Positions 3,001 to 25,055 of a stretch of DNA of 32,000 nucleotides are shown piece by piece. Source of the stretch: Candidatus Saccharimonadota bacterium (lineage in GTDB: Bacteria > Patescibacteriota > Gracilibacteria > Absconditabacterales > Absconditicoccaceae); the NCBI GenBank assembly GCA_000503875.1, contig CP006913.1, forward strand, positions 1,110,001 to 1,142,000, read 5' to 3'. The position numbers were made by a program, and so were the translations under genes. The notes below the pieces were generated by a model. The model searched no databases and had not been told where the DNA came from. It was given only the letters and a program-made list of their open reading frames with translations. The stretch's first letter is position 1. Every line of letters starts with the position of its first letter.

Positions 3001-3595
3001 ATCAATCAGCATTTAATCTAACAAGTCACTTTGCAGGTTGTCCATTGTAAGAAGAAAATTGCCCACCAACCAAGATTTTTCCATCATTTTGAATTGATAT
3101 TTTTTTAACTGAACCATTGTATGAACTATTAAACCCACTTCCTATATCAAATGAAGCATCTTTAGATCAATTAGCATTTAATCTGATAAGATTGTTTGTA
3201 AGTTGTCCATTATAAGCCGTAAAGCTTCATCATACAATCATTTTTCCGTCATTTTGAAGCGCTATTGATTCTACTCAATATCAAGAATATTCATCCTGAA
3301 ACCCAGTTCATGTCAAAAAAGAAGCATCTCTAGATCCATCAACATTTAATCTAGTGATGTGATTTATTTCTTCTCAATTATAAAGATTAAAATTTCAAAC
3401 TATAACCATTTTCCCATCGTTTTGAACAGCGATAGATTTGACTCTATTAAAAAAACCACTTCCAATATTGAAGGAATCACCTACTTCTAACGCTCAAAAA
3501 GATTTATCTATACCAGCTTGCCAAGCATGTCAAAAACTGCCAAAAAGCAATACAAAAGACGCCATTATTCAAATGGTATAAAATAACTTTTTCAT
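17..3595 (-). CDS. Secreted giant repeat protein (1192 aa with TGA=Gly): signal peptide, ~14 tandem ~56-aa delta-60/DUF5122-type beta-propeller repeats, and a C-terminal non-repeat domain
   Basis: ATG at 3595 (MKKLFYTIGIMASFVLLFGSFGHAWQAG, signal-peptide-like). Hand translation of the minus strand with TGA=Gly runs without TAA/TAG to TAG at 17-19, and the length of 3579 nt is divisible by 3. Repeat consensus is RLNxDGSxDxSFDIGxGFNDGNGSAYxYTTxIQNDGKILVGGxFxSYNGQPANGLV. I counted ~77 in-frame TGA, which is why no minus-strand ORF of 60 aa or more appears across most of the gene in the track. Confidence 0.8.
168..204 (-). repeat. In-frame 15-bp microsatellite (about 2.5 copies of gttcaatttcaagaa) encoding (GTSGN)n in the C-terminal domain of the repeat protein
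   Basis: Direct reading gives gttcaatttcaagaa at 168-182 and 183-197, plus a partial copy at 198-204. On the coding strand this is tga act tct tga aat repeated. Confidence 0.7.
1010..3490 (-). repeat. Coding tandem repeat array with a 168-bp (56-codon) period, best conserved at 1100-2100 and interrupted by a Cys-containing insert at ~2640-2900
   Basis: Near-identical strings recur in register, for example aaatatcaaatgagttgtct at 1111 and 1447 (336 bp, or 2 x 168, apart). Many repeats share ccatcattttg and tcaatttcaatcat variants. Confidence 0.85.
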
Positions 3596-3659: not shown

Positions 3660-3745
3660 AAAAACAAATAGTTTTTTAATTATCTCTTTTTAAAAACTTA
3701 TTTAAAAACAATGCCAAGAAAACACTAGTCACCATCTAGTAAAAC

Positions 3746-3774
3746 ATTTGTCCTACTTTTGTCAGTTTTTTTCT
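3746..3774 (+). promoter_or_regulatory. Conserved 29-nt box ATTTGTCCTACTTTTGTCAGTTTTTTTCT (direct repeat TTTGTC-N5-TTTGTC), copy a
   Basis: 28/29 identical to 24366-24394 and 25/29 identical to 13344-13372. It lies 68 nt upstream of the radical SAM ATG. Confidence 0.5.
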
Positions 3775-3841
3775 TATATCGGGATTTTTACAATTGGGCG
3801 CGATATCTAGAGATATCATTTTTACCCTCTAAAAATCCCCC

Positions 3842-4747
3842 ATGAACGAAAGAGATCTCAGACTTATTCTCACCCAAAAATGTAATTATCGCTGCACCTT
3901 TTGTCATCATGAAGGGGTAGCTCACGACATTTTTCAGACACTTAATAATGATGATTATTTGTTTTTATATGACACGGTAAAACAACAACAAAACATCCAA
4001 GATGTAAGTTTAACCTGATGAGAACCACTTATGTACCCAAAAATAGAGAATTTATGTAAATTGTTGTATGATCGCTGAGCAAAAATTACGCTAGTAAGCA
4101 ATTGATCTTTGCTCAATATACATCATGAAGTAGGGAAGTGGGTTCACAGAATAAATCTTTCACTTCATACCTTAGATCAAGAACAATACAACGACATTAC
4201 CCAAACAAAAACCAAAATAGAACACATCATTTACAACATAGAGCTTATGAGAAAACTTTATCCAAATCTTTTGATCAGACTCAATGCAACCGTAGTAAAA
4301 TGACGTAATGATAACAAAGAAGATCTATCGGCATTGGTTGATTTAGCTGACAAACATAGTCTTTCTATAAAATTCGTAGAATTATACCCAAACACAGAGC
4401 CAGATTTTATTCCTTTGAAAACAATAGAGCCAATTTTAGAAGATCTTGGATTTGAAAAATATCAAGAAAAACCAAGGCAAACAATATATGGAAGAGGAAA
4501 ACGCATAATAATTTTGACCAAAATTTCTTGTGGCGCCACAGGCCAAGAAGAACATATTATTGCTCCAGCAGATAATGATATTTTTATAAGTCCTGACTGA
4601 CTTATTTCTCCCTATCCTTCTAGTGAAAACAAAGTTTCTTTATTCGATGCTATCAAAAAACAAAACACCCAAGAAGTAGCTCGTCTTTTGCAGCAAGCTA
4701 TAGATCAAGTCGATCCAACCAGAATTCCTCAAAAAATTTTAGATTAA
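3842..4747 (+). CDS. Radical SAM enzyme, MoaA-like fold (301 aa), apparently lacking the C-terminal auxiliary-cluster cysteines
   Basis: Contains CNYRCTFC (CxxxCxxC) at residues 14-21, LTGGEPL (both Gly are TGA, 4016-4021), SNG, INLSLHTLD and a RLNATVVKGRND..FVELYP pattern like MoaA. Stitched from frame-2 fragments 3842.., 4109.. and 4334... Only one Cys (KISCGA) occurs in the C-terminal third. Confidence 0.8.
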
Positions 4748-4757
4748 AAAAGATATT

Positions 4758-5171
4758 ATGAAAGATAAAGATTTTGATGGTTGGAATAATGAAAAAAAGA
4801 AAATTGATAAAGATTTTTCAAAAAAACATCTATGGGTAAATAAAAGAGAGATTCGACTTTATTATGTATGAGTTAATATATGAAATGAAATAAGCAAAAA
4901 TTCGCCATATATAAGACCTTGTTTAATTATAAATAATTATTTTATAGGCGATTTAATCGTTATAATACCCATAACAACAAAATATAAGCAAAAATTTGAA
5001 AAGGTTTTTTATAAATTACCAATAAAATCTAATATATCTAGTTTTTTGATGCTCAATCAAATAACTGTTATTAGTAAAAAAAGATTGGTGAGAAAAATTT
5101 ACATAGAAAATAAAAAAATATCAACAATAATTTTTGAAGAAATTATAGATAAAATGAAAAATTTATTATAA
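4758..5171 (+). CDS. PemK/MazF-like toxin-fold protein, paralog 1 (137 aa), with no adjacent antitoxin ORF
   Basis: Translation with TGA=Gly gives FDGWNNEKKKID...REIRLYYVGVNIGNEISKNSPYIRPCLIIN...IVIIPITTK...MLNQITVISKKRL. This is the G-x-E...RP-x-hydrophobic...P-x-T...Q-x-R/T-x-x-KR pattern of PemK/MazF. It starts 10 nt after the radical SAM stop. Confidence 0.75.
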
Positions 5172-5230
5172 AAAAAACGGCCTTTTGGGCCTCGGAAAAG
5201 CGCATTCATTTAAAATGAACCGCTCAAGTT
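5171..5230 (-). ncRNA. Predicted convergent sRNA 1 (~60 nt), running from the promoter at 5237-5264 to a terminator abutting the toxin stop
   Basis: On the minus strand there is a hairpin at 5199-5224 (about 10 bp including a G.U and one bulge). A GGCC/GGCC hairpin at 5179-5191 follows, then T8 (complement of 5170-5177). No T-tract follows these hairpins on the plus strand. Confidence 0.4.
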
Positions 5231-5236
5231 GATGTA

Positions 5237-5264
5237 ATTATAAATAAAAAAAATAGAAAATCAA
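5237..5264 (-). promoter_or_regulatory. Antisense sigma70-type promoter TTGATT-N16-TATAAT facing PemK-like gene 1
   Basis: The reverse complement of 5259-5264 is TTGATT and of 5237-5242 is TATAAT, with a 16-nt spacer. The rpsL promoter at 14825-14852 and my reading of the dnaX upstream region have the same architecture. Confidence 0.5.
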
Positions 5265-5292
5265 ACATTTTTTTACTTTTTTATAATCATCC

Positions 5293-5802
5293 ATGATCGA
5301 ATTTGAAAAAACATTTCTCCTCAAAACTATTCCCTTTGATTTACAAAAATATCCACATAAAGAGTTAGTTGATCATTATATTCCTATTGAGTCAGAACAC
5401 CCAAAACTCAGGCTTCGCAAACGCGGAAATCTCTACGAAATCACCAAAAAAACGTTGGTCCAGGAATGAGATAGTTCAGTCCAAAGAGAACAAACCATAG
5501 AACTTTCAAAAGTAGAATATGAGGCATTGGCAGAGCTTCCCAATAAATTAATTCACAAAATTAGGTACTATGTCCCATACGAGGAATTTATCCTGGAAAT
5601 AGATCTTTTCCAAGAAAATCTCGATGGCCTCATCCTCATGGATGTAGAATTTCCAGACCGCCAAACAATGGAATGTTTTACTATGCCAGATTTTTGTCTA
5701 GCCGACATTACGCAAAACGAACTTTTTGCATGAGGTATGCTTTGCGGCAAAACCTATGCGTCTTTAAGTGGATTAATTAAGCAGTACATGGGAGAAATAT
5801 AA
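5293..5802 (+). CDS. CYTH-domain protein (triphosphate tunnel metalloenzyme / CyaB-ThTPase family), 169 aa
   Basis: N-terminal MIEFEKTFLL matches the ExExK CYTH signature. Also present are LRLRKRGNLYEITKK and ILEIDLFQENLDGLILMDVEF. Stitched across TGA at 5467 and 5731. Confidence 0.75.
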
Positions 5803-5866
5803 AAGTAATGAATTCGAAACCTTTAAAAAAAGCAGATATAGTTTCATTTCTGTAATATAATTTTCA

Positions 5867-7390
5867 ATGTTTTTTCTCATTATATTTTCGTTGGCGATTG
5901 CAGGAATTACAATCACGGAGCTGCCTATCGTCATTATCTTGCTGCGATCGCCAGTGCTTATTTACTTTTTGTTTTCAAAAAATCGTGCAACTTTTTTTGC
6001 CATGACTTGAGCGTGTCTCCTTGCTCTTTTGAGTCGGCAAATGTATCAATGGAGATATTATTGAACAACAACATTACAATCACAAATTTTAACAAAGCCC
6101 TTTCACCTCTCAACCGGAACAATTTCCGAAACTCTATGATCAGGGAAATACCTATACACCACGAACACCAAAGACTATCTGCTTTATACCACAAAAACCT
6201 ATGTCCCTGGCAATCAAATTCGATTAATCGCACGTAATTCGGTCCAGTCGATAAATTCACCATCGCTCACCTTCATTACACGAGATTCTATTTTTTATAG
6301 CGGTTTCAACGCCCCAAAGCGATCAAAAATGAAGGGATACGCCAATATATTATACGAAACCAACTCAGTTTTTATCGACACTGGAATTATTTCATGATTT
6401 TCCAAAATTCGTCACACCTTTCAAAAAAAATTAGAAAAAACTTATACCAATAACAGGACTGCGTGACTAGTTCTATGAATGCTCATTTGAGACAAATCAA
6501 AATTTTCAAAATCAGAAGAACAATTATTTATCGATTCTGGACTTGTGCATTTGGTTGCCGTAAGTGGCGGAAATATAGTTATGCTCGTTACTTTTCTGAC
6601 AGCGATCCTCTTTTTCGTCCCGTTTTACGCCAGAATAACCCTCATCCTCCTCGCCGTCCTTTCCTACGGAATCATCTGTGGTATGGATTCAAGCGTGCTT
6701 CGTGCAGTGCTTATGGGCTCACTTTCTTTGGTCGCATTACTTGTCGGAAGAGGAACATCACTGCGAAGATTACTAGGCTTGGTGCATGTCAGCATGCTTA
6801 TCTACAATCCCTATTTTTTAGTTTACGATGTATGATATATTCTCAGTTTCTCAGCGGTATTGGGTATTGTTTTTGTAGATGTTTTTCATTCATCATCAGA
6901 TGCCAAAATCTCGAAATTTCGAAAACCATTTCTTCGAATCCGATCGAATTATCTCAAGCCCAGTTTATGAGCAACGCTGGGTATTTTTCCAGTTATCATC
7001 TTCTTTATGGGCCAAATAAATATCGGTTGAGTGATAGGAAATATGTTTGTGCTGCCTTTGGTGCCATTTATTATGATTTGATGATTTATTGGTGCTTTTC
7101 TTCCTTCTCGAGCACAAACTTATTATATACCAATTGTCGACTTGCTCGTAGAGCGAAATTACTTCATAGCAGCCAAAATCGATCAATATGGTCCAACAAT
7201 TATCGCTGAGGTATCATGGATCAAATTTTTGCTCTTTACTACATCAACTATTATGATGATACTAGTCATCAAGAAACTGGCAATCACGACAAATGAGGAC
7301 AAACCACCCAAGCCTTTAGACAAACCCACGACATCACCCTATGACGATATCATCACCCACCTTCCTGTCGAAGTAACTCAAAAACAATAA
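5867..7390 (+). CDS. comEC: ComEC/Rec2 DNA-uptake channel protein (507 aa), membrane domain only
   Basis: Contains LVLGMLIGDKSKFSKSEEQLFIDSGLVHLVAVSGGNIVML (competence domain signature) and multiple TM segments. Frame-2 fragments were stitched across about 12 TGA. No C-terminal metallo-beta-lactamase domain is visible. Confidence 0.85.
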
Positions 7391-7670: not shown

Positions 7671-8084
7671 ATGGAAAACACCTTTTCTTTATTTGATAGT
7701 TGGAACCAAGAAAAAAAGCATATTCACCAATATTGATCAACCTGAAGAATAAAAGATTTTTATATTAATCATAGAGAGGTTTGGTATGTTAAATTAGGTA
7801 TTAATGTTTGATATGAGCAAAATTGAAAAACTGAGTTTAAAAGAGCGGTTTTGATTATAAAAAAAATAGGTAACATTTTTCTTGTAATCCCAATGACAAC
7901 AAAAGAAAAAAACAATATTTATCACTATAAACTAATATCTTTTAAATGAAAGGTTTCTTGGTTAATACTTTCTCAGTTAAGAACTGTAGATAAGAAAAGA
8001 TTTATAGAAAAAATCTGAGAAATTAGTACAGAAGAACTTAAAATAATTAAAAAAAATCTGAGCAAATACTATTTCTCAGATTAA
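7671..8084 (+). CDS. PemK/MazF-like toxin-fold protein, paralog 2 (137 aa), solitary
   Basis: Contains FDSWNQEKKHI...REVWYVKLGINVGYEQNGKTEFKRAVLIIKKIGNIFLVIPMTTK...LSQLRTVDKKRFIEKIGEIS. It has 7 in-frame TGA and the same length as paralog 1. Confidence 0.8.
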
Positions 8085-8137
8085 CGGTTGTAGCTCAGCA
8101 GTAATGCTGAGGGGATCCCAATAAAGGGACATTTACG
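8049..8137 (-). ncRNA. Predicted cis-antisense sRNA 2 (~89 nt) overlapping the last ~36 nt of PemK-like gene 2
   Basis: Minus-strand hairpins lie at 8115-8130 (5 bp, one pair valid only as G.U on minus) and 8094-8111 (7 bp, 4-nt loop). A terminator follows at 8056-8081 (ATCTGAG/CTCAGAT, 7 bp) plus a T-run (complement of 8049-8055) inside the toxin CDS. No T-tract follows on the plus strand. Confidence 0.55.
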
Positions 8138-8143
8138 TTGTGT

Positions 8144-8171
8144 ATTATAATAATTTTTTTTAAAATTACAA
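8144..8171 (-). promoter_or_regulatory. Antisense sigma70-type promoter TTGTAA-N16-TATAAT facing PemK-like gene 2
   Basis: The reverse complement of 8166-8171 is TTGTAA and of 8144-8149 is TATAAT, with a 16-nt spacer. It lies 60 nt beyond the toxin stop. Confidence 0.55.
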
Positions 8172-10118
8172 ACCATTTTTTCTAAAGCATTATTCCAAAT
8201 TTCAAATCCGCTTTAAATTTTCTCTCCCTGCCACCAACCACCATCCATTCCCCAAAATTACCCCAAAATGTTGTTTTTGTAAAAAGCTAGGTACTAACTA
8301 CATTCTTTGAAAAGATTGTCATTTGCTATAGTTCTTGATATAGATATAGACATTTGTATAAATATCTTTACAAGAAATTGATTGTCCATATAAAACTTTC
8401 TGCTTGCCCATATTTGTTTGCTTCCAAACAAGCATATAGGGATATATCTATATTTCTATGTAAATAAAATACAAAAAAGACAAGAGGGTCGGTTTTTTGG
8501 GATTTTGATCAAAAAAATGAAAAAATTTAATACCTTTTTCACCAAAAATTAAGGAATATTTTTGAAGAGAAAAATCTTTGATATCAAGATTTAGAATTAT
8601 TGTTTCTCAAAAAAACCGTACCATCATTTTCCTCTCAAAAATCATTTTCAGAAAATCTCTCCAAATGGAAAAAATAAAGCAATATTTTTTTCTTCTTTTC
8701 CAAAATTTTCCCCCCAAAATTTTCTTTCTCAATCTTTTTTATCTCTTCAATCATCTTCACCCACCTACACAAAACAAAAAGCCAGAGAAATTGCTTATTA
8801 TACAAAGAGCCTTATTTGCCTTTTTTATCTCTCTGATATCAGACAATATGCCCATAGTTACGATTGCTGGTTTATTGATCAATTCCGCTCCAAAACAGAT
8901 ATTTACTTCTTCAAAACAGATATTTACCTCTCCAAAAATTCGAATAATGTATCCGTTTCACCCAAAATTAGCTCTTTCCCCCAAAAACCCGAAATACCTA
9001 TACAAAACCATCGGTTTAACCACCACTGACACAAAACCACAAAATTTCATCACTACCCACTCAAAATAGATCTTTATCTATATATCTATTTGGCATATCA
9101 AGCCATTTAAGCATAGTTCAATCAATCTATAGATACCTATCAATGTCTTTAAAACAAGGAAACTCGATCAAAACCATTTCAAAAAGCTCCAAAAACCCTC
9201 TTTTTTACAGAAAAATCAGTAGAATTTTTTGTCCAAGAAAAATTTATTTTGCCAAAAGAGCTTAGACAACCAAAATTTTATATTTTGTCAAAAACAGACA
9301 TATTTCAAAAACTAATCAATAAATGACCTAGACAAGAAACCATGCAGAGATACCAACCACCAAAAAATCATTTTCACATGAAGTTCAGATTTTTTTCTTT
9401 TTCCCCTTCGACATTTTATTTGATTTCATGCTCTTTTATTGCTGGGTACAACGCCTATTTCCTCTCCAAAAAGACATTTTGTCTTCAAAGGTGGCTCCAG
9501 TCTTGGTTTATCTTATAATATTTGTCAAAGTTCAGATACAAACTAGGCAAAAACTCATTAAGAACTTCAAAATAAACACCCTTTCTTTCGACTTTTTGTT
9601 CAAACTACCACAAAAAACGACACCAATAACACAAATTCTCTCGTTCTAACAACTATTTTATCATAACAATAAATCTGATTTTCTTTTTTGTTCAAATTGT
9701 CTACCTTATATATACGGAAATTTTGTTTTTCTGTTTTTTCATTTTTGGCGTTTCTCAACTATAATTTATTCTTTATCCAGTAGAGTGAGACATCGCTAGT
9801 CACTCAAGATGACATATATAGTCATTTCGACAGGACAAACCAAGAAAAGTAAAAAAACACCAATTATTGGTCAAACTATTGTGATATAGGGCAAAATGAA
9901 GGACTAATAAGCTATTTGATTATCTATAAGACCAATAATCGTTTTATATTCATTTACACCCACCAACCATTATTATCACCACACAGAAAATAAATATGTC
10001 AATTACATTCTACACCAAACAGACCCAAAACAACGACAAGAGAAAGTCTAAATATACTAGGTAAGAAGCTATGTTTTATATAAATCACCTCAAAATCAAT
10101 GCTTTTTATTACTTTTTT

Positions 10119-10408: not shown

Positions 10409-13243
10409 ATGAAAAAATTGTTTTCAATTGTTGCTACCGTTATGTTGTTGGCTGGAATAGTAATTCCTGCTAATACAAGCGCTGCTTATTCAGACGAATT
10501 GACAGGAGCTTATAGTTATGCCTATGGAATGGGAATAACTACTCAATCTTCTATCGAAAATGCTGATATGTATGGAAGTCTTACAAGAATCGCTCTTGCT
10601 AAAATGATTTCTAATTACGTATTAGAATTAGGATTACAAACACCAGACACATCTAAAGAATGTATCTTTACTGATGTATCTAATGCTTTAGACACTCAAT
10701 ACAACAATTGAGTAAAAAATGCTTGTCAATTGGGACTTATGGGAGTAGGAATTTCTACTTTCAGACCAAATGATACAGTTACTAGAGCTGAATTTGGTAC
10801 AGTTCTTTCTAGAGCTATCTGGGGAGACGATAATAATGGATCTGATCCTTATTACGTTGCTCACTTGAATGCTTTGAAAGATGCTGAAGTTATGACAAAC
10901 ATCGCTAACCCAAATATGAAAGAGGTTAGAGGTTATGTTATGTTAATGATGCAAAGAGCTGACGAAAGTGGTGTTGCTAATAATCAACCTGCTATTTGTT
11001 CTACTCCAGAAAATGTTCTTGCTTGTTCATTAGGTTTGGACTCTTGTCCAGCTGAATGTCTAGAAACAGAAGAAGAAGTAGATCTTCCTGGATTTGCTAC
11101 TATTTCTAGAGTTGGTTCAACTGCTACACAATATGTAGCTTCAAATGCAGTTAACAAAAAAGTTGGAGCTATCAAGCTTACTGCTGGGCAAAATGACACT
11201 ACAGTTTCATCTGTTGTTGTTTCTCACAATGGTCTTGGTGATTCTACTGATGTTACTGTTCAATTATACAAAGATGGTGTAGTTGCTTCTAATGCTAGAG
11301 CAATCACTTCTTCTTCACAAAATGCTACTCTTAGATTTACTCCTGCTCTTGAATTAAAGGCTGGATCATCTATGACATTTGATGTTATGGCTAGTGTTGA
11401 TGGATTAGTAAATGAAGAACATAACTTTTCTGTTACAGCAGTTAATGTTGTAAACGGAACAGCTACTGGTACTCCAATTGCTCTTGATACACTTAGAACA
11501 ACTTCATATGTAGTTGGTAATGCTAATCCAACACTTACTACATACAGTGTTAAAGCTGGTGATGTTCAAGAATTAGTTGCATCAGTTTCTATTTTACCAG
11601 GTAAAAATGCTATCATTAAGGGTGTAACTCTTACTAGATCTTCTGGTAAAAATATTGATGAAGTTCTTTCAAATGTAAAAGCTTACTACAATGATGAAAT
11701 AGTTGGTACAGTTACTGTAACTGACGAAAAAATCGTTGTTGCTGGTCTTAACATCGAAAGATTAAATGGAGAAACTGCAAACATCGAACTTAAAGCTAAT
11801 GGTATCTATATTGGTACTCTAGGTGATGTTCTTTTGGTTGTAGAAGCAAATGATGTATATGCTGTAGAAGCAAATACAAACGAAAGCATGAGAAGTCTTG
11901 CAAGTGCTATTGGAACTCTTTCTGTTGCTAATGTTGATATGTCTCTTACAAAAGTATCAACAGGATCACAAACAGTTGCTCCAGGTACATCTAATGTAGA
12001 ACTTCTTAATCTTAAATTAACATCTAATACAGAATTTGAAGTATCTAATTATACTATTAAATTTAATGATATTGGTGAACTTTTGACAAACTTTATTGAT
12101 AATGAAGTAACAGTATATATCAATGGTATAGATTATTCTATGACTACTGATACATTAACTTTAAGTGCTTCATCAGATAGATTTTTCATAGACAAAAACA
12201 ATCCTGCTACAATCAGAGTTGTTGGTCATACAAAATCTGTTCCAGCTGTTCTATGAGAATCTTATCAAATGAACTTTGCTATCACAGAAGTTAAAAACAT
12301 AGAAAATGGAAATACTATTGGTGCTTTGACGTACAACAAAAATGGAGATACAACAACAGTTAACGTTGGATCTTACACAGTTACAAAACCATCTACTCTT
12401 CCAAATAACAAAACAGTTATGGAAGGATCTGATTCAGATCTAGTATACTTCAACATGAAGGCTGCTGCTGAAAATCAAGTTTTGAAAGCTGTTACAGTTA
12501 CGTCTGCATTGTGATGAAATTTTGATGTTTACGCTACTGAACTTACACTTATGCAAGGAAATTCAATAGTTAAAACTATTGATGAAGCTGATCTAGGTGT
12601 TGCTACTGTAACATTCAATGATTTCTCTAGAAATCTTACAAAGGATGCTTCAGTTCCATTTACAATAAGAGCTACTCTTAAAGATGGAGACGTTACAACT
12701 CTTGGAGATATAATCCAACTTCAAGTAACTGACTTCGATGTTAGACGTGCTGCTGCTATTGGAGATGCTGAATTGGTTACAACAAGTGTATTCAATACAT
12801 ATGGTAAAGCATACCAAATTGCAAGCAACATCCCAACTATAGCTTTAACTGCTCAAGTTGAAAAAAATACAACTGTTCAATTCGCTAATACATCATCTTA
12901 CGATATCAGAGTTACTAATGTAACATTTGATATGACTCGTAATTTGAATAATGGTTCATATGTAACATGGGATGGAACTGCTGCATTACTTGATTGAATT
13001 AATGGTACTGCTGTATCAGTTACAGCTCCTGTTATACCAGGACCTGCTGCATTTGTTATGAATGCTGGTTACATCGTAAGTACATCTACAGTTGATGCTA
13101 ATCTTGAACTTGTTGACAGTGCAAATACTGTTACAGATGCTGATTACACAGTGACTGCTAAGAGTATGACATTTGTATACGTAGACAGAGATACTTCAGT
13201 AGAATCTGCTCCTATTACAGAAACATACAGTATTTCTAAATAA
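10409..13243 (+). CDS. S-layer-like surface protein (944 aa): signal peptide, two SLH-like domains, a Cys-rich linker and a long Thr/Val/Asn-rich beta-type region
   Basis: MKKLFSIVATVMLLAGIVIPANTSAA looks like a signal peptide. SLH-like segments are YGSLTRIALAKMISNYV and FRPNDTVTRAEFGTVLSRAI. Five frame-2 fragments (10376, 10730, 12269, 12551, 13058) are joined by only 5 TGA. A strong terminator follows. Confidence 0.85.
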
Positions 13244-13301
13244 TTATTTCTCTCGAGATCTAATTGTTAGACATATATACCCTCGCTTCGGCGTGGTACA
13301 G

Positions 13302-13333
13302 AAAACCCTTGGACTTCGGTCTGAGGGTTTTTT
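13302..13333 (+). terminator. Intrinsic terminator of the S-layer-like gene
   Basis: A 9-bp stem CCCTTGGAC/GTCTGAGGG (13306-13314 / 13319-13327) carries a UUCG loop and T6, flanked by A4. A second UUCG hairpin at 13283-13297 precedes it. Confidence 0.8.
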
Positions 13334-13343
13334 GTGTTGATTT

Positions 13344-13372
13344 TTTTGTCTTATTTTTGTCAGTATTTTTCT
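13344..13372 (+). promoter_or_regulatory. Conserved TTTGTC-N5-TTTGTC box, copy c (25/29 match to copy a)
   Basis: TTTTGTCTTATTTTTGTCAGTATTTTTCT lies 49 nt upstream of the PemK-like gene 3 ATG. A TTGTAT-N17-TATACT promoter candidate follows between the box and the ATG at 13421. Confidence 0.4.
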
Positions 13373-13420
13373 TTGTAAAATTGTATATAGTCCGCAAACT
13401 TTATATACTAAGCAAAGAAA

Positions 13421-13813
13421 ATGAACGATAAAAAGGAATTGTTTGATATTTGGGGCAAACAAAAATTTATTATAGACAAAGAGATTTCACCTGTTTTTTT
13501 TAAGGAAAGGGATATGTTTTTTATAAAAATGGGTCAAAATATAAGATTTGAACAAAATTGAAAATGATGGGAATTTGTTAGACCAGTAGTGATAATAAAA
13601 AAATTTAATAACGATGTATTTTGGTGAGTAGCATTATCAACAAAAATTAAAGACTGATTATATTATTATTGTTTTGATGCCAATTGAGCCAAACAATGTG
13701 CTATAATATCTCAATTTAGATTGTATGATAAAAATAGATTAATAAAAAAAATTGGTATGATACCTATAAAAGATTTTTTTCAATTAAAACAAAAAATCAA
13801 AAACCTTTTATAG
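13421..13813 (+). CDS. PemK/MazF-like toxin-fold protein, paralog 3 (130 aa), solitary
   Basis: Contains LFDIWGKQKFIID...RDMFFIKMGQNIRFEQNGKGWEFVRPVVIIKKFNNDVFWGVALSTK...ISQFRLYDKNRLIKKIG, with 6 in-frame TGA. Confidence 0.8.
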
Positions 13814-13868
13814 TTTCTGATTGTTTTATATCCCAACATAAGTTAGGACGATCCCGAAGGAATTTAGT
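13790..13868 (-). ncRNA. Predicted cis-antisense sRNA 3 (~78 nt) whose terminator hairpin covers the toxin stop codon
   Basis: On the minus strand there is a short UUCG-loop hairpin (13852-13861) and a 7-bp hairpin at 13831-13848 (TCCTAAC/GTTGGGA; one pair is G.U on minus but C.A on plus). The terminator is CAGAAAC/GTTTTTG (13798-13819) followed by ATTTTTTGTTTT. Confidence 0.5.
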
Positions 13869-13874
13869 GAAGTA

Positions 13875-13902
13875 ATTATAACAAAAACATTTCAAATTGC
13901 AA
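13875..13902 (-). promoter_or_regulatory. Antisense sigma70-type promoter TTGCAA-N16-(TGT)TATAAT facing PemK-like gene 3
   Basis: 13897-13902 is TTGCAA and the reverse complement of 13875-13880 is TATAAT, preceded by TGT (extended -10 like), with a 16-nt spacer. The 42-nt block 13865-13906 is 38/42 identical to 25014-25055. Confidence 0.55.
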
Positions 13903-14019
13903 ATCAAATTAACCACACCTCGGCGTGGTGCAAAGTCCTCCGCATAGTCGAGTTTTTTTGCTTGTTTTTTTTATAAAAATATCTACAAAAAGGAATCTTT
14001 TATATATTGTTTATCAATC

Positions 14020-14679
14020 ATGAACTTTCTCAAAAAGAACTGGATTAGTTTTGTAATTGCACTAATTTTTATAGGTTTTTTGTGTATGGTATACGTTATT
14101 AGACAACAAAATCTTTACGAGAAGAATCCTGGACTTATCCCACCAAGAAATAATTATGACGTAAAAATAGAACTTAACGACCAAGAAAAAGCCAAACTAG
14201 AAGAAGAGCTAAAAAAATATGACGATCTGATTCAAAATTTTGTTCCTGCTACAGGTCAACAAGAAGTAGATTTATGAGACGGTAACAAAGGTATGATAGA
14301 ACCTATAAGCAAACCAGATGCCCAACGATTTTATGGAAAAGCAACCGCATTAGAAAAACTTGGAAGATATACCGAAGCCATCAAAACATTAAATGAAGTC
14401 TTTGAACATTACGAAGAAAGTGCAACAGCTCGAAATAGTCTGTGACTATTATATAGCAAGGTTGGTGAACACAAATATGCTATTATGAATTTCCAAAAAA
14501 TCATAGATACTTTTGGCGATCCAATTTTCCAATATTACGAAAGAATTATTAGAACCTATTTGATAATTTGAGACGGAGAACAGGCATGACAACGATACAT
14601 AAAATACGAGAAAGCATGAGGAAAGAGAAACGAAGAACTTATGTCCTTAATCAAAGCAGCAAAGCTTCAAACGAAATAA
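14020..14679 (+). CDS. Membrane-anchored TPR-like repeat protein (219 aa)
   Basis: It has an N-terminal TM segment (WISFVIALIFIGFLCMVYVI) and TPR-like helices (FYGKATALEKLGRYTEAIKTLNEVFE; LLYSKVGEHKYAIMNFQKII). Stitched across 5 TGA. Confidence 0.65.
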
Positions 14680-14903: not shown

Positions 14904-15329
14904 ATGCCTACTATTAATCAACTTATTAAAAACGGAAGAAAAGAAAGGAAAGCAAAGTCAAAAGCTCCTGCTTTACAATTTGGTATCAACAAATTAAAAG
15001 GAAACAAGAAAGTTGAGGGACCAGCACCATTCAAAAGATGAGTATGTCTCAAAGTTTCAGTTATGGGTCCTAAAAAACCAAATTCAGCTCAAAGAAAGTT
15101 TGCGAAAGTAAGACTTTCAAATGGTGCGGAAGTATTGGCATATATTCCTGGAGAATCTCATACTTTACAAGAACACAGTGTGGTTTTGGTGAGAGGATGA
15201 AGAGTTAAGGATCTTCCATGAGTGAGATACCATATTCTTAGAGGAAAATACGATGCTAATCCAGTAGATAAAAGAAGACAAAGCAGATCTTTGTACGGAG
15301 CAAAAAGACCAAAAGCTGCTGCAAAATAG
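14904..15329 (+). CDS. rpsL: 30S ribosomal protein S12
   Basis: [13 protein letters not shown]...KRGVCLKV...[10 protein letters not shown]...[24 protein letters not shown] at 15039, 15198 and 15219 align to universally conserved Gly. Confidence 0.97.
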
Positions 15330-17532: not shown

Positions 17533-17543
17533 GAACCTTTTAT

Positions 17544-24365: not shown

Positions 24366-24394
24366 ATTTGTCCTAGTTTTGTCAGTTTTTTTCT
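24366..24394 (+). promoter_or_regulatory. Conserved TTTGTC-N5-TTTGTC box, copy b, overlapping a candidate promoter TTGTCA-N17-TGTAAT (24379-24407)
   Basis: ATTTGTCCTAGTTTTGTCAGTTTTTTTCT is 28/29 identical to 3746-3774. It lies 64 nt upstream of the PemK/MazF gene 4 ATG. Confidence 0.5.
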
Positions 24395-24457
24395 AGAAAT
24401 ATGTAATTATAATTCACCATAACATGGTAAATGTTATTTTATTTTGTAATTATAAAA

Positions 24458-24952
24458 ATGGAATTACTTATAAAAAGATTAATTAACAAGGTCAAAGAAA
24501 TTGCAAACGATATTACAATTCCAATTATATATCAGTTTTTGGATCGATTTAATCTTGTTTTATATCTTCATTTTGAGAAAAAGACACCAAATATTGTTTT
24601 TAAACAACGGGATATTTATGAAATAAATTTATGACAAAATGTTTGAAGTGAATTAAACAAGAAAAGACCATGTATTATTATTTCCAATCAATCTTTTAAT
24701 AAATGAAATACAGTAATAATATTACCATTAAAAGGGATAAGAGAAACTACAAGAATATGAATTATCACGATATCTATTGATTTTCTAAAATCTTGACTAA
24801 AAAAACCAACATATTGTTCTTGTTTTAATATTAGAGAAGTATCAAAAAAGAGGATCTGACAATATATTGGTACTATAACAAATGAAAATAGAAAAATCAT
24901 TAACAATAGTTTGTCTATAATATTTTGATTAAAAAAACAAGCCACCCCCTAG
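24458..24952 (+). CDS. PemK/MazF family toxin, paralog 4 (164 aa; canonical core with an N-terminal extension), solitary
   Basis: RDIYEINLGQNVGSELNKKRPCIIISNQSFNKGNTVIILPLKG...GLKKPTYCSCFNIREVSKKRIGQYIGTI. An alternative start at 24431 is possible. Stitched across 7 TGA to TAG at 24950-24952. Confidence 0.8.
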
Positions 24953-25017
24953 AGGATGACTTGCTTTTAAAGTGAATCTCCGATTGTTCGGAGTCAATAG
25001 CATAGGCTATTTATAGT
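24931..25017 (-). ncRNA. Predicted cis-antisense sRNA 4 (~87 nt) overlapping the last ~22 nt of the toxin CDS
   Basis: Minus-strand hairpins lie at 24997-25010 (ATAGC/GCTAT) and 24978-24993 (CTCCGA/TCGGAG). The terminator is at 24937-24964 (GCAAG-T-CATCC / GGGTG-G-CTTGT; two pairs are G.U on minus but A.C/C.A mismatches on plus), followed by a T-run (complement of 24931-24936). Confidence 0.55.
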
Positions 25018-25023
25018 GAAGTA

Positions 25024-25051
25024 ATTATAACAAAAATTTTCCCAATTGCAA
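25024..25051 (-). promoter_or_regulatory. Antisense sigma70-type promoter TTGCAA-N16-(TGT)TATAAT facing PemK/MazF gene 4
   Basis: 25046-25051 is TTGCAA and the reverse complement of 25024-25029 is TATAAT, with a 16-nt spacer. It sits in the 103-nt convergent gap between the toxin gene and rsmA, so it has no protein-coding target on the minus strand. Confidence 0.55.
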
Positions 25052-25055
25052 ATCA

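Follow-up and report, generated by a model that had tools for sequence, protein, structure and literature searches.

A GC-rich direct repeat around an SR1 PemK toxin unit as the core of a predicted reused terminator module

Bacteria of the candidate phyla radiation (CPR) have tiny genomes with few recognized mobile elements, and the exchange of accessory and defense genes among them is poorly understood. A 32,000-nucleotide (nt) stretch of a CPR chromosome, hereinafter the window, raises this problem in a concrete form. Between an S-layer gene and a tetratricopeptide repeat (TPR) gene, at what we call locus 3, lies a gene for a PemK/MazF-family toxin, PemK-3 (100% identical to P148_SR1C00001G1040 of candidate division SR1 bacterium RAAC1_SR1_1), which is accompanied by a convergent structured small RNA (sRNA) and bracketed by a GC-rich direct repeat in AT-rich DNA. 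Is this repeat the mark of an inserted cassette, as the original prediction held, or does it have another origin? The answer that we consider probable is that locus 3 is an exchangeable toxin/sRNA cassette and that the repeat comes from the core of a terminator module in repeated use. This largely accounts for the repeat itself, and what is new, within known kinds, is the cassette family, the conserved sRNA and the module-delimited island in which they lie.

The bracketing repeat and the terminator module

The following features of locus 3 are needed for the argument.

13241-13243, plus strand: TAA stop codon of the S-layer gene
13244-13280, plus strand: module leader, directly 3' of the S-layer stop, containing TCTCGAGATCTAATTGTTAGACA
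13281-13300, plus strand: left copy of hairpin 1 (UUCG loop; fold 13281-13296), holding the left repeat at 13288-13300
13297-13340, plus strand: hairpin 2, a strong UUCG-loop intrinsic terminator with T-tract; S-layer gene terminator
13345-13364, plus strand: box TTTGTCTTATTTTTGTCAGT, left end of the PemK cassette
13421-13813, plus strand: PemK/MazF-family toxin gene 3 (130 aa; genetic code 25; five in-frame TGA codons read as Gly)
13790-13876, minus strand: structured sRNA (leader, P1, P2, A-rich linker, terminator P3)
13902-13897 (-35) and 13880-13875 (-10), minus strand: sigma70-type sRNA promoter, TTGCAA-16-TATAAT
13865-13906, minus strand: conserved 42-nt block, right end of the cassette, with the sRNA promoter and first transcribed bases
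13912-13932, plus strand: right copy of hairpin 1 (fold 13912-13929), holding the right repeat at 13920-13932
13930-13961, plus strand: variant second hairpin, hp1b (AAGTCCTCCGCATAGTCGAG), with a T7 tract (TTTTTTT at 13952-13958)
13962-14019, plus strand: TPR promoter/leader region, homologous to the empty-site spacer described below
14020-14679, plus strand: TPR-repeat gene (Pfam TPR)

The left (TCGGCGTGGTACA) and right (TCGGCGTGGTGCA) copies of the repeat lie where they were first described and match at 12 of 13 positions; with a repeat finder, 13278-13300 and 13910-13932 align over 23 nt, of which 78% are identical, and no third copy is present in the 32-kb window. The window contains a single pair of such GC-rich 13-mers (at least 8 G/C, at most one mismatch, within 1 kb of each other), and because 5 of 100 first-order Markov simulations yielded at least one comparable pair, the pair taken alone is only moderately significant. 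That the two copies are truly homologous is shown by homologous copies in three relatives. The original account of the immediate context agrees with the folding results: both copies are part of small hairpins, to which they contribute the 3' arm and some of the loop, and a T-tract follows on the right. On the left, a 20-pair extended stem followed by a T-tract (fold z = -5.6) is called terminator-like by a terminator scan. The right-hand module copy consists of hairpin 1, hp1b and a T-tract and lacks hairpin 2, which is unique in the window; its fold is weaker (z = -1.4), and with the T7 tract it has the stem-loop plus U-tract form of an intrinsic terminator. We rejected a tRNA or tmRNA origin of these hairpins, as a scan of the window for either gave tRNA-Lys at 17543 as its sole match.

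The relationship of the two copies becomes clear from the contig L003, which encodes an identical S7 protein and is ~87% identical to the window over the ribosomal-protein core. Its interval from the S-layer gene to rpsL contains ~6.5 kb without a counterpart in the window, and in these 6.5 kb the 13-mer word occurs seven times (2907, 3550, 4732, 5796, 6785, 7780 and 9384), every time as hairpin 1 followed by AACCCTTGGACTYCGGTCTGAGGGTTTTTT; hairpin 2 is likewise found seven times in this contig. Between 2.9 and 9.4 kb, L003 has an array of seven genes in the same orientation (plus strand), each followed by the module, and these genes are unrelated to one another: they code for the S-layer protein, a PemK protein, three Bro-N-domain proteins, a KilA-N protein and a RelE-like open reading frame (ORF). 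L004, a contig from a metagenome-assembled genome labeled as Peribacteria, has two copies, one on either side of a Bro-N-domain gene, and L016 has one copy 3' of hicA. When aligned, the copies form one module of ~60-100 nt consisting of a leader beginning TCTCGAGATCTAATTGTTAGACA, hairpin 1, hairpin 2 (AACCCTTGGACTYCGGTCTGAGGGTT) and a T-tract. The leader is conserved after the S-layer gene in L003 and after the Bro-N-like gene in L004 and is partly conserved in other module copies. The module folds as two independent hairpins plus T-tract (z = -4 to -6), with separate hairpins on either strand. The core of hairpin 1, TCGGCGTGGT, is invariant in all nine aligned copies, and this small hairpin is more strictly conserved than the terminator stem, hairpin 2. 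The hp1b of the window matches the middle hairpin of a three-hairpin module copy at L003 5796.

Because relatives have the word repeatedly, as hairpin 1 of a module found behind unrelated genes, a single insertion did not produce the repeat by duplication. We conclude from these alignments that it represents the conserved core of a reused terminator module and is neither an insertion scar nor a cassette boundary, so that the part of the original prediction in which the repeat brackets an inserted element as its signature falls away. For annotation, this is a caution: GC-rich direct repeats that flank a gene in AT-rich DNA may represent a reused terminator and not the scar of an insertion. The prediction had also named an observation that would count against it, namely, that the word is a common terminator motif across the genome. 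This turned out to be half the case: the word is a recurrent terminator motif, but one restricted to the variable island in the sequence examined, which comprises the 32-kb window, 18 kb of L003 and small contigs. As regards dispersed intergenic repeats of the REP/MITE type, which have many copies across a genome, the copies found in this sequence all lay inside the S-layer-to-rpsL island, with none in the 11.8 kb of L003 outside it.

A scan for TCGGCGTGGTRC..TTGGACTYCGG in a genome-contig collection retrieved one real relative, L004; the scanned collections contained neither the source genome nor L003. Three further matches in the genome collection lie in coding DNA of 63-71% GC and are ascribed to chance, as are five single metagenome-contig matches, all of which used a long gap and four of which are in contigs of 54-68% GC, and three long-gap matches in viral contigs.

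Two further observations concern the module in L003. Four intergenic segments (3730-3797, 4706-4843, 5835-5949 and 6756-6896), each comprising the module and a TTGTCAAAAAAAGATTTGATTT...TGTATAAT promoter, are 83-98% identical to one another, although the genes beside them are unrelated or only 70% identical, which indicates homogenization or shuffling of regulatory segments. Just 5' of the three-hairpin copy lies a TPR remnant of 32 codons (5665-5760), all that L003 keeps of this gene, with 62% amino acid identity to residues 174-205 of the window protein; the hairpin 1-hp1b variant hence adjoins a TPR gene in both genomes, but on opposite sides.

Empty sites and exchanged cassettes

The original prediction proposed a comparison of empty and filled S-layer/TPR intervals, and an empty site is indeed present in distant relatives. 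A search with the S-layer protein returned four distant homologues and no close relatives. In L038-L041, which share ~66% nucleotide identity with the window in the S-layer gene, the S-layer gene is followed by a single terminator built on the same two-hairpin plan, next by a short promoter region to which window positions 13962-14019 can be aligned (L038 and L040) and then by a TPR orthologue (34-36% amino acid identity over the full length). No matches to PemK, the box, the sRNA motif or the 13-mer were found in these four. Because they keep the order of S-layer gene, terminator and TPR gene without PemK, the filled site can be described as the empty site to which the cassette and another copy of the terminator have been added. 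The TPR gene, with orthologues directly 3' of the S-layer gene in all four, is by this comparison the ancestral downstream neighbor of the S-layer gene.

The contents of the locus differ among three close relatives. The window has the module, the PemK-3 cassette, the variant module and the TPR gene; L003 has the module, a different PemK cassette, the module, four Bro-N/KilA-N cassettes, a PemK-4-type cassette, a RelE-like pair and the module; and L016 has hicA, the module, an element resembling a miniature inverted-repeat transposable element (MITE) and a chimeric PemK cassette. After these differing contents, all three rejoin the same conserved rpsL leader. In the comparison of the window with L003, the breakpoint falls precisely on the 3' edge of the right repeat copy.

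The PemK cassettes in turn have ends of their own. The window contains exactly three copies of the box TTTGTCYTANNTTTGTCAGT (3747-3766, 13345-13364 and 24367-24386, all on the plus strand), each of them upstream of a PemK-containing unit, a count reached in 0 of 100 shuffles, and the box is also present in L003 (twice), L016 and L019-L021. The copy at 3747-3766 precedes a radical-SAM gene (3842-4747), 10 nt after which PemK-1 starts. The box is probably a shared operator or a promoter-upstream/promoter-proximal element; its distance of ~21-24 nt from the nearest -10-like hexamer downstream exceeds that of a normal -35 element. At the other end, the 42-nt block with the sRNA promoter is identical at 38 of 42 positions (90.5%) to the block at 25014-25055 of locus 4, precisely as originally reported. 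Locus 4 (24367-25055, plus strand) is a sister cassette comprising the box, PemK-4, a convergent sRNA and the same promoter block, without the GC-rich repeat. It is 94% identical to L003 7839-8527, which has a different genomic context with unrelated flanks, and the homology starts exactly at the box (TTTGTCCTAGTTTTGTCAG) and stops exactly at the -35 element of the sRNA promoter. The common descent proposed for the units of loci 3 and 4 thus holds for the cassette ends that they share, the box and the sRNA promoter block. Between box and promoter block, no terminal inverted repeats were found beyond AT-rich noise, and a scan of viral contigs for the promoter block gave no matches.

At the position of locus 3, the window and L003 agree in the leader and module (92-93%), the box (81%), the promoter block (88%) and the right hairpin 1 (79%), whereas in the interior the ORF is only 60% and the sRNA body 45% identical; the L003 toxin at this position is 39% identical in amino acids to PemK-3 and 45% to PemK-2. 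Conserved ends around exchanged interiors speak for recombination by way of the modules and ends that the two genomes have in common. L016 (836-1304) has a chimeric, frameshifted PemK gene, in which a 5' region and 10 initial codons of the PemK-4 type are joined to a body of the PemK-3 type, which is evidence of recombination between two cassette types. The PemK units are not bound to the repeat, which is lacking at locus 4, on the right side of L016 and beside the PemK-3 homologues of seven other genomes.

On the basis of these observations, locus 3 would be a self-contained cassette of ~560 bp (13345-13906) consisting of a box/promoter region, the PemK gene and a convergent sRNA of ~80 nt, which would have come to sit in an originally ~175-nt spacer between the S-layer and TPR genes. 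The module would end essentially every gene of the S-layer-to-rpsL variable island in this SR1 lineage, acting as a terminator or insulator, and with a module copy on either side of each cassette the repeat comes to bracket the PemK unit. Recombination between module copies and between the shared box and promoter ends would then shuffle the cassettes. The original notion of an inserted cassette hence survives as that of an accessory unit in the S-layer terminator region, as suggested by the empty sites, the three different island contents and the mobile locus 4 cassette. The pattern has two layers. The first is a variable island beside rpsL, where the same terminator module closes each cassette; the second is a family of very compact units, each made up of a MazF-type toxin and a structured RNA convergent with it, which have their ends in common and can exchange their interiors.

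The PemK-3 toxin and its convergent RNA

Under the standard bacterial table 11, the ribosomal protein genes of the window are broken by TGA codons, and with TGA read as Gly the S12 protein (rpsL, 14904-15329) reads ...FKRGVC..., from which it follows that the window uses code 25. ORF lists made with table 11 split nearly all genes of the window, including all four PemK genes. With code 25, the PemK_toxin genes and the RNAs facing them, which differ in sequence, are as follows.

4758-5171, plus strand: PemK gene of locus 1; convergent promoter and multi-hairpin RNA at 5172-5270, minus strand
7671-8084, plus strand: PemK gene of locus 2; convergent promoter and multi-hairpin RNA at 8085-8190, minus strand
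13421-13813, plus strand: PemK-3, with the sRNA listed above
24431-24952, plus strand: PemK gene of locus 4; convergent promoter and multi-hairpin RNA at 24953-25055, minus strand

Downstream of each gene come a TATAAT-type promoter that faces it and a stretch rich in hairpins, the last of which lies at or just past the stop codon. PemK-3 matches the Pfam family PF02452 (PemK_toxin) with 25.3 bits against a cut-off of 23.1, and only when read with code 25, and the other three score 33.7-69.7 bits. A profile of its subfamily matches the solved structures of EndoA/YdcE, PemK and MazF (E = 9e-5 to 7e-3). R54 and P55 are invariant in 16 subfamily members, in which an L-S/T-T/S-K segment is also conserved; we take this Arg-Pro motif and the S/T to serve in catalysis as in the MazF fold in general. 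These features make PemK-3 a predicted MazF/PemK-family endoribonuclease toxin. It differs in an extra N-terminal segment of ~25 residues of the FDxWNxxKK type, and no specific family for it was found in PADLOC or NCBIfam.

No plausible protein antitoxin ORF of at least 30 aa is present besides the toxin within 13341-13906, and the same is true of the seven other genomes; the listed minus-strand ORFs in the cassette run through terminators or promoters. These seven metagenomic genomes have PemK-3 homologues that are 55-69% identical and lie in unrelated neighborhoods (serine recombinases, GroEL, an ornithine carbamoyltransferase [OTCase] gene and others). In L019, two large serine recombinase (Resolvase-domain) genes (1-2511) are found directly upstream of the PemK-3-type unit, which suggests that there the unit is carried on a mobile element. 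In L022, PemK genes of different subfamilies stand in tandem (2335-2739 and 3001-3390), each with its own convergent hairpin RNA.

The minus-strand RNA from 13870 to 13790 has a predicted fold of three hairpins (z = -4.8), the first of which, P1, is UCC-UUCG-GGA (UUCCUUCGGGA). In agreement with the original prediction, the terminator stem (~13795-13821) encloses the toxin stop codon TAG (13811-13813). The sRNA overlaps the toxin gene only by this terminator, P3 (~25-35 nt), which takes in the final ~24 nt of the toxin ORF with its stop codon. The U-tract at which the toxin mRNA would end is complementary to the A-rich linker, and overlap of the two RNAs is thus probably limited to a bidirectional terminator. 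In all seven other genomes, a convergent sigma70-like promoter drives a predicted RNA of the same layout with the terminator over the toxin stop. Across genomes, it displays an invariant (A)AAUUCCUUCGGGAUCG, a compensating stem of 6-8 bp (P2) and a CAUACAA-type linker. In the seven-genome alignment, 91% of the cells are paired versus 36-57% with slid partners, and 9 of 21 pairs display double changes; the covariation score was reached in 0 of 500 shuffles. The derived covariance model matches window positions 13791-13876 at 93 bits and finds the L016 copy, which was outside the seed, at 92 bits, bringing the genomes with this sRNA to eight. The copies outside the window are as follows.

L016: 1189-1274
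L017: 3374-3462
L019: 3482-3566
L022: 3357-3452
L025: 2868-2956
L031: 1255-1339
L037: 2868-2954

The model matches neither the RNAs of the other three loci (1, 2 and 4) nor those of the plasmids discussed below, and each toxin subfamily hence seems to have its cognate RNA type. No family of Rfam 15 matches (E of at most 1 for the whole window and of at most 10 for the sRNA region). Anti-Q, the best Rfam candidate, was rejected with 22 bits against a threshold of 45 bits, and five matches to a 17-mer of the sRNA in viral contigs, all scoring at most 21 bits by the covariance model, are due to chance. The SR1-type sRNA thus appears to be a candidate new RNA family tied to PemK-3-type toxins.

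Taken together, the arrangement suggests that the sRNA is most likely the RNA antitoxin of PemK-3. The partnership of a MazF-family RNase with a conserved RNA in place of a protein antitoxin would be unusual. Neutralization might come about through antisense pairing at the overlapping 3' ends, in a type I-like manner, or through binding of the RNA to the toxin protein. The latter, a type III-like action as a pseudo-substrate, is possible but the less likely of the two in our view. It would account for the 5' domain with its invariant 16-nt motif and its covarying stem, conserved in seven to eight genomes, neither of which is needed for antisense action, and for the restriction of the overlap to the terminator. 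Pairing of the 5' domain with the toxin start region, significant in the window (z = -3.8), is not so in six other genomes; as six of seven genomes gave no significant signal, we rejected conserved trans-pairing with that region, which also favors protein binding. What speaks against it is that the RNA lies downstream of the toxin gene and is convergent, rather than upstream, that the toxin belongs to the MazF family and not to ToxN, and that there are no tandem processing repeats as in ToxI: the only tandem repeats found are the T-rich box units of 11-14 nt in 2.3-3.4 copies. The RNA CjrA of plasmid pVir, the only published relative that we know of, is moreover described as an antisense type I antitoxin (PMC10470494).

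This plasmid belongs to a wider set. Homologues of the FDxWNxxKK type, 35-45% identical to PemK-3 and annotated as type II PemK/MazF toxins, are encoded on plasmids of Nitratiruptor and Helicobacter and on pVir of Campylobacter jejuni 81-176. In each of the four plasmid loci that were inspected, a promoter and a multi-hairpin RNA convergent with the toxin gene lie at its 3' end, and no antitoxin gene is adjacent.

L048: pVir, NC_005012.1, 30630-31200
L049: Nitratiruptor plasmid
L050 and L051: Helicobacter plasmids

In pVir, the PemK-3 homologue (WP_011117588.1, 30630-31034; 38% identity) has the same N terminus; downstream of it, a TTGATT-17-TATAAT promoter faces the gene, and a hairpin RNA ends at the toxin stop. 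Two papers present the pVir antisense sRNA CjrA as the RNA antitoxin of a type I toxin-antitoxin (TA) system (PMC10470494 and PMC7826846, both citing Shen et al. 2016, Mol Microbiol 101:909), and the pVir homologue and its convergent RNA may be this published CjrA/CjpT system. The layout thus reaches plasmids of Campylobacter, Helicobacter and Nitratiruptor, and one of its members may already be a demonstrated RNA-antitoxin system. The pVir RNA fails the SR1-type model, and the pVir and SR1 RNAs therefore share a layout but not a sequence family.

Among known systems, the feature of type I TA systems, a cis-antisense RNA overlapping the toxin mRNA, is present here in silico in the form of a promoter, a structured RNA and covariation. 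The layout also matches txpA/RatA and bsrG/SR4 of Bacillus subtilis, in which the mRNA of the toxin and the antitoxin RNA run toward each other and share a bidirectional terminator where their 3' ends overlap; their toxins are small hydrophobic peptides, unlike the ~130-aa MazF-fold RNase of locus 3. With the type II systems MazEF/PemIK, locus 3 shares the toxin family but not an upstream protein antitoxin gene. With the type III system ToxIN, it shares an RNA partner and a Kid/MazF-like toxin fold, and it differs in lacking an upstream tandem-repeat RNA.

Competing explanations for the module

Several points weigh against the combination of an exchangeable cassette with a reused terminator. 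Empty sites are known only in distant relatives, the terminators of which share the design but not the TCGGCGTGGT word, and loss of the cassette in the L038-L041 lineage may stand as a formal alternative to insertion. The right-hand module copy is atypical, with its missing hairpin 2 and weak fold. A role of the module in recombination is a prediction, no recombinase being encoded in the window, and its apparent restriction to the island derives from 32 kb plus 18 kb of sequence. Expression of the sRNA and the toxin is likewise predicted, and CjpT may be a gene other than the PemK-like one of pVir.

Of the alternatives, the one that survives best, which we rate as possible yet clearly less probable, holds that the two copies are homologous terminators with no role in movement, the likeness of which is kept by selection or gene conversion, the cassette having arrived or been duplicated with its own terminator of the type preferred in the island. 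That both copies belong to plus-strand terminator-like structures, that the empty-site relatives too have a two-hairpin terminator after the S-layer gene and that PemK units elsewhere integrate without the module all fit with it. The module resembles tandem-hairpin intrinsic terminators in its GC-rich UUCG-tetraloop hairpins and T-tract directly after stop codons, but differs from them in being a near-identical sequence family reused after unrelated genes in one island. Two observations are left unexplained by plain terminators: a weak hairpin 1 of 5-6 bp with an internal mismatch is conserved beyond the strong terminator hairpin, and the breakpoint between the window and L003 coincides with the edge of the right copy.

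An unlikely explanation is that the module is a dedicated site-specific recombination site, an analogue of attC, with the array built by a recombinase encoded elsewhere. The L003 array, in which genes of one orientation each have a highly similar imperfect palindrome of 60-100 nt at the 3' end, recalls integron attC arrays, e.g., the Vibrio cholerae repeats, and its cargo of toxins, Bro-N and KilA-N proteins is typical of cassette arrays, toxin-antitoxin genes being cargo of integrons as well. The invariance of TCGGCGTGGT in an AT-rich genome, while the neighboring bases vary, and the similarity of intergenic segments between unrelated genes (91-98% identity) would also be in line with such a site. 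Against this, no transposase, integrase or recombinase genes are encoded in the 32-kb window, and no integrase or recombinase was found in the loci of relatives examined. The module forms two hairpins plus T-tract on both strands instead of one R''-L''/L'-R' hairpin and has no GTTRRRY-type core, the cassettes carry their own promoters, and PemK units move without the module. 

A closely related proposal, also improbable in our estimation, is that the leader-hairpin 1-hairpin 2 module is the crossover site of a cassette exchange in SR1/Gracilibacteria, functionally analogous to attC and PeSL but structurally different from them. Cassettes with toxin/sRNA, Bro-N, KilA-N and RelE-type genes would then be assembled and reshuffled immediately upstream of rpsL, and the invariance of TCGGCGTGGT would reflect recognition by a recombination protein and not terminator function. 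PeSL (promoter-early stem-loop) elements, mobile regulatory cassettes reportedly described by Arbiol et al. in 2010, are repeated segments of terminator stem-loop plus promoter found between small accessory ORFs in a hyperplastic region of T4-type phages, and their copies are said to mediate modular shuffling by recombination. The near identity of the L003 module plus promoter segments between unrelated genes is similar; the SR1 case differs in concerning a bacterial CPR chromosome and in having no sequence similarity to PeSL. A search of the available literature retrieved no description of this module or of an RNA partner for PemK in CPR bacteria.

Target-site duplication, by which an element of ~630 bp would have transposed into the S-layer terminator and duplicated 13 bp, is very improbable. 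The 12/13 direct repeat on both sides of the unit and the empty site in distant relatives are what it would lead one to expect, but the same word stands beside seven unrelated genes in L003 and beside others in L004 and L016 (10 further places in all) and is not in the empty sites. Further, the similarity extends to 23 nt and beyond at lower identity, the locus 4 cassette and its copy in L003 lack the repeat, with homology stopping at the box and sRNA promoter, and neither terminal inverted repeats nor, in the window, a transposase are present. Chance similarity of two GC-rich hairpins, allowed by the comparable pairs in 5 of 100 simulated windows, has a negligible probability in view of ten further homologous copies in three relatives that share flanks and architecture.

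A minor element occurs in the same surroundings. The MITE-like sequence, GTCATTCCCGC ... GCGGGAATCTAA ... GGAAATGAC, is absent from the window and lies beside PemK or island cassettes in three genomes, at the following positions.

L004: 1833-1865
L016: 725-781
L019: 3751-3783, minus strand
L020: 1570-1602, minus strand

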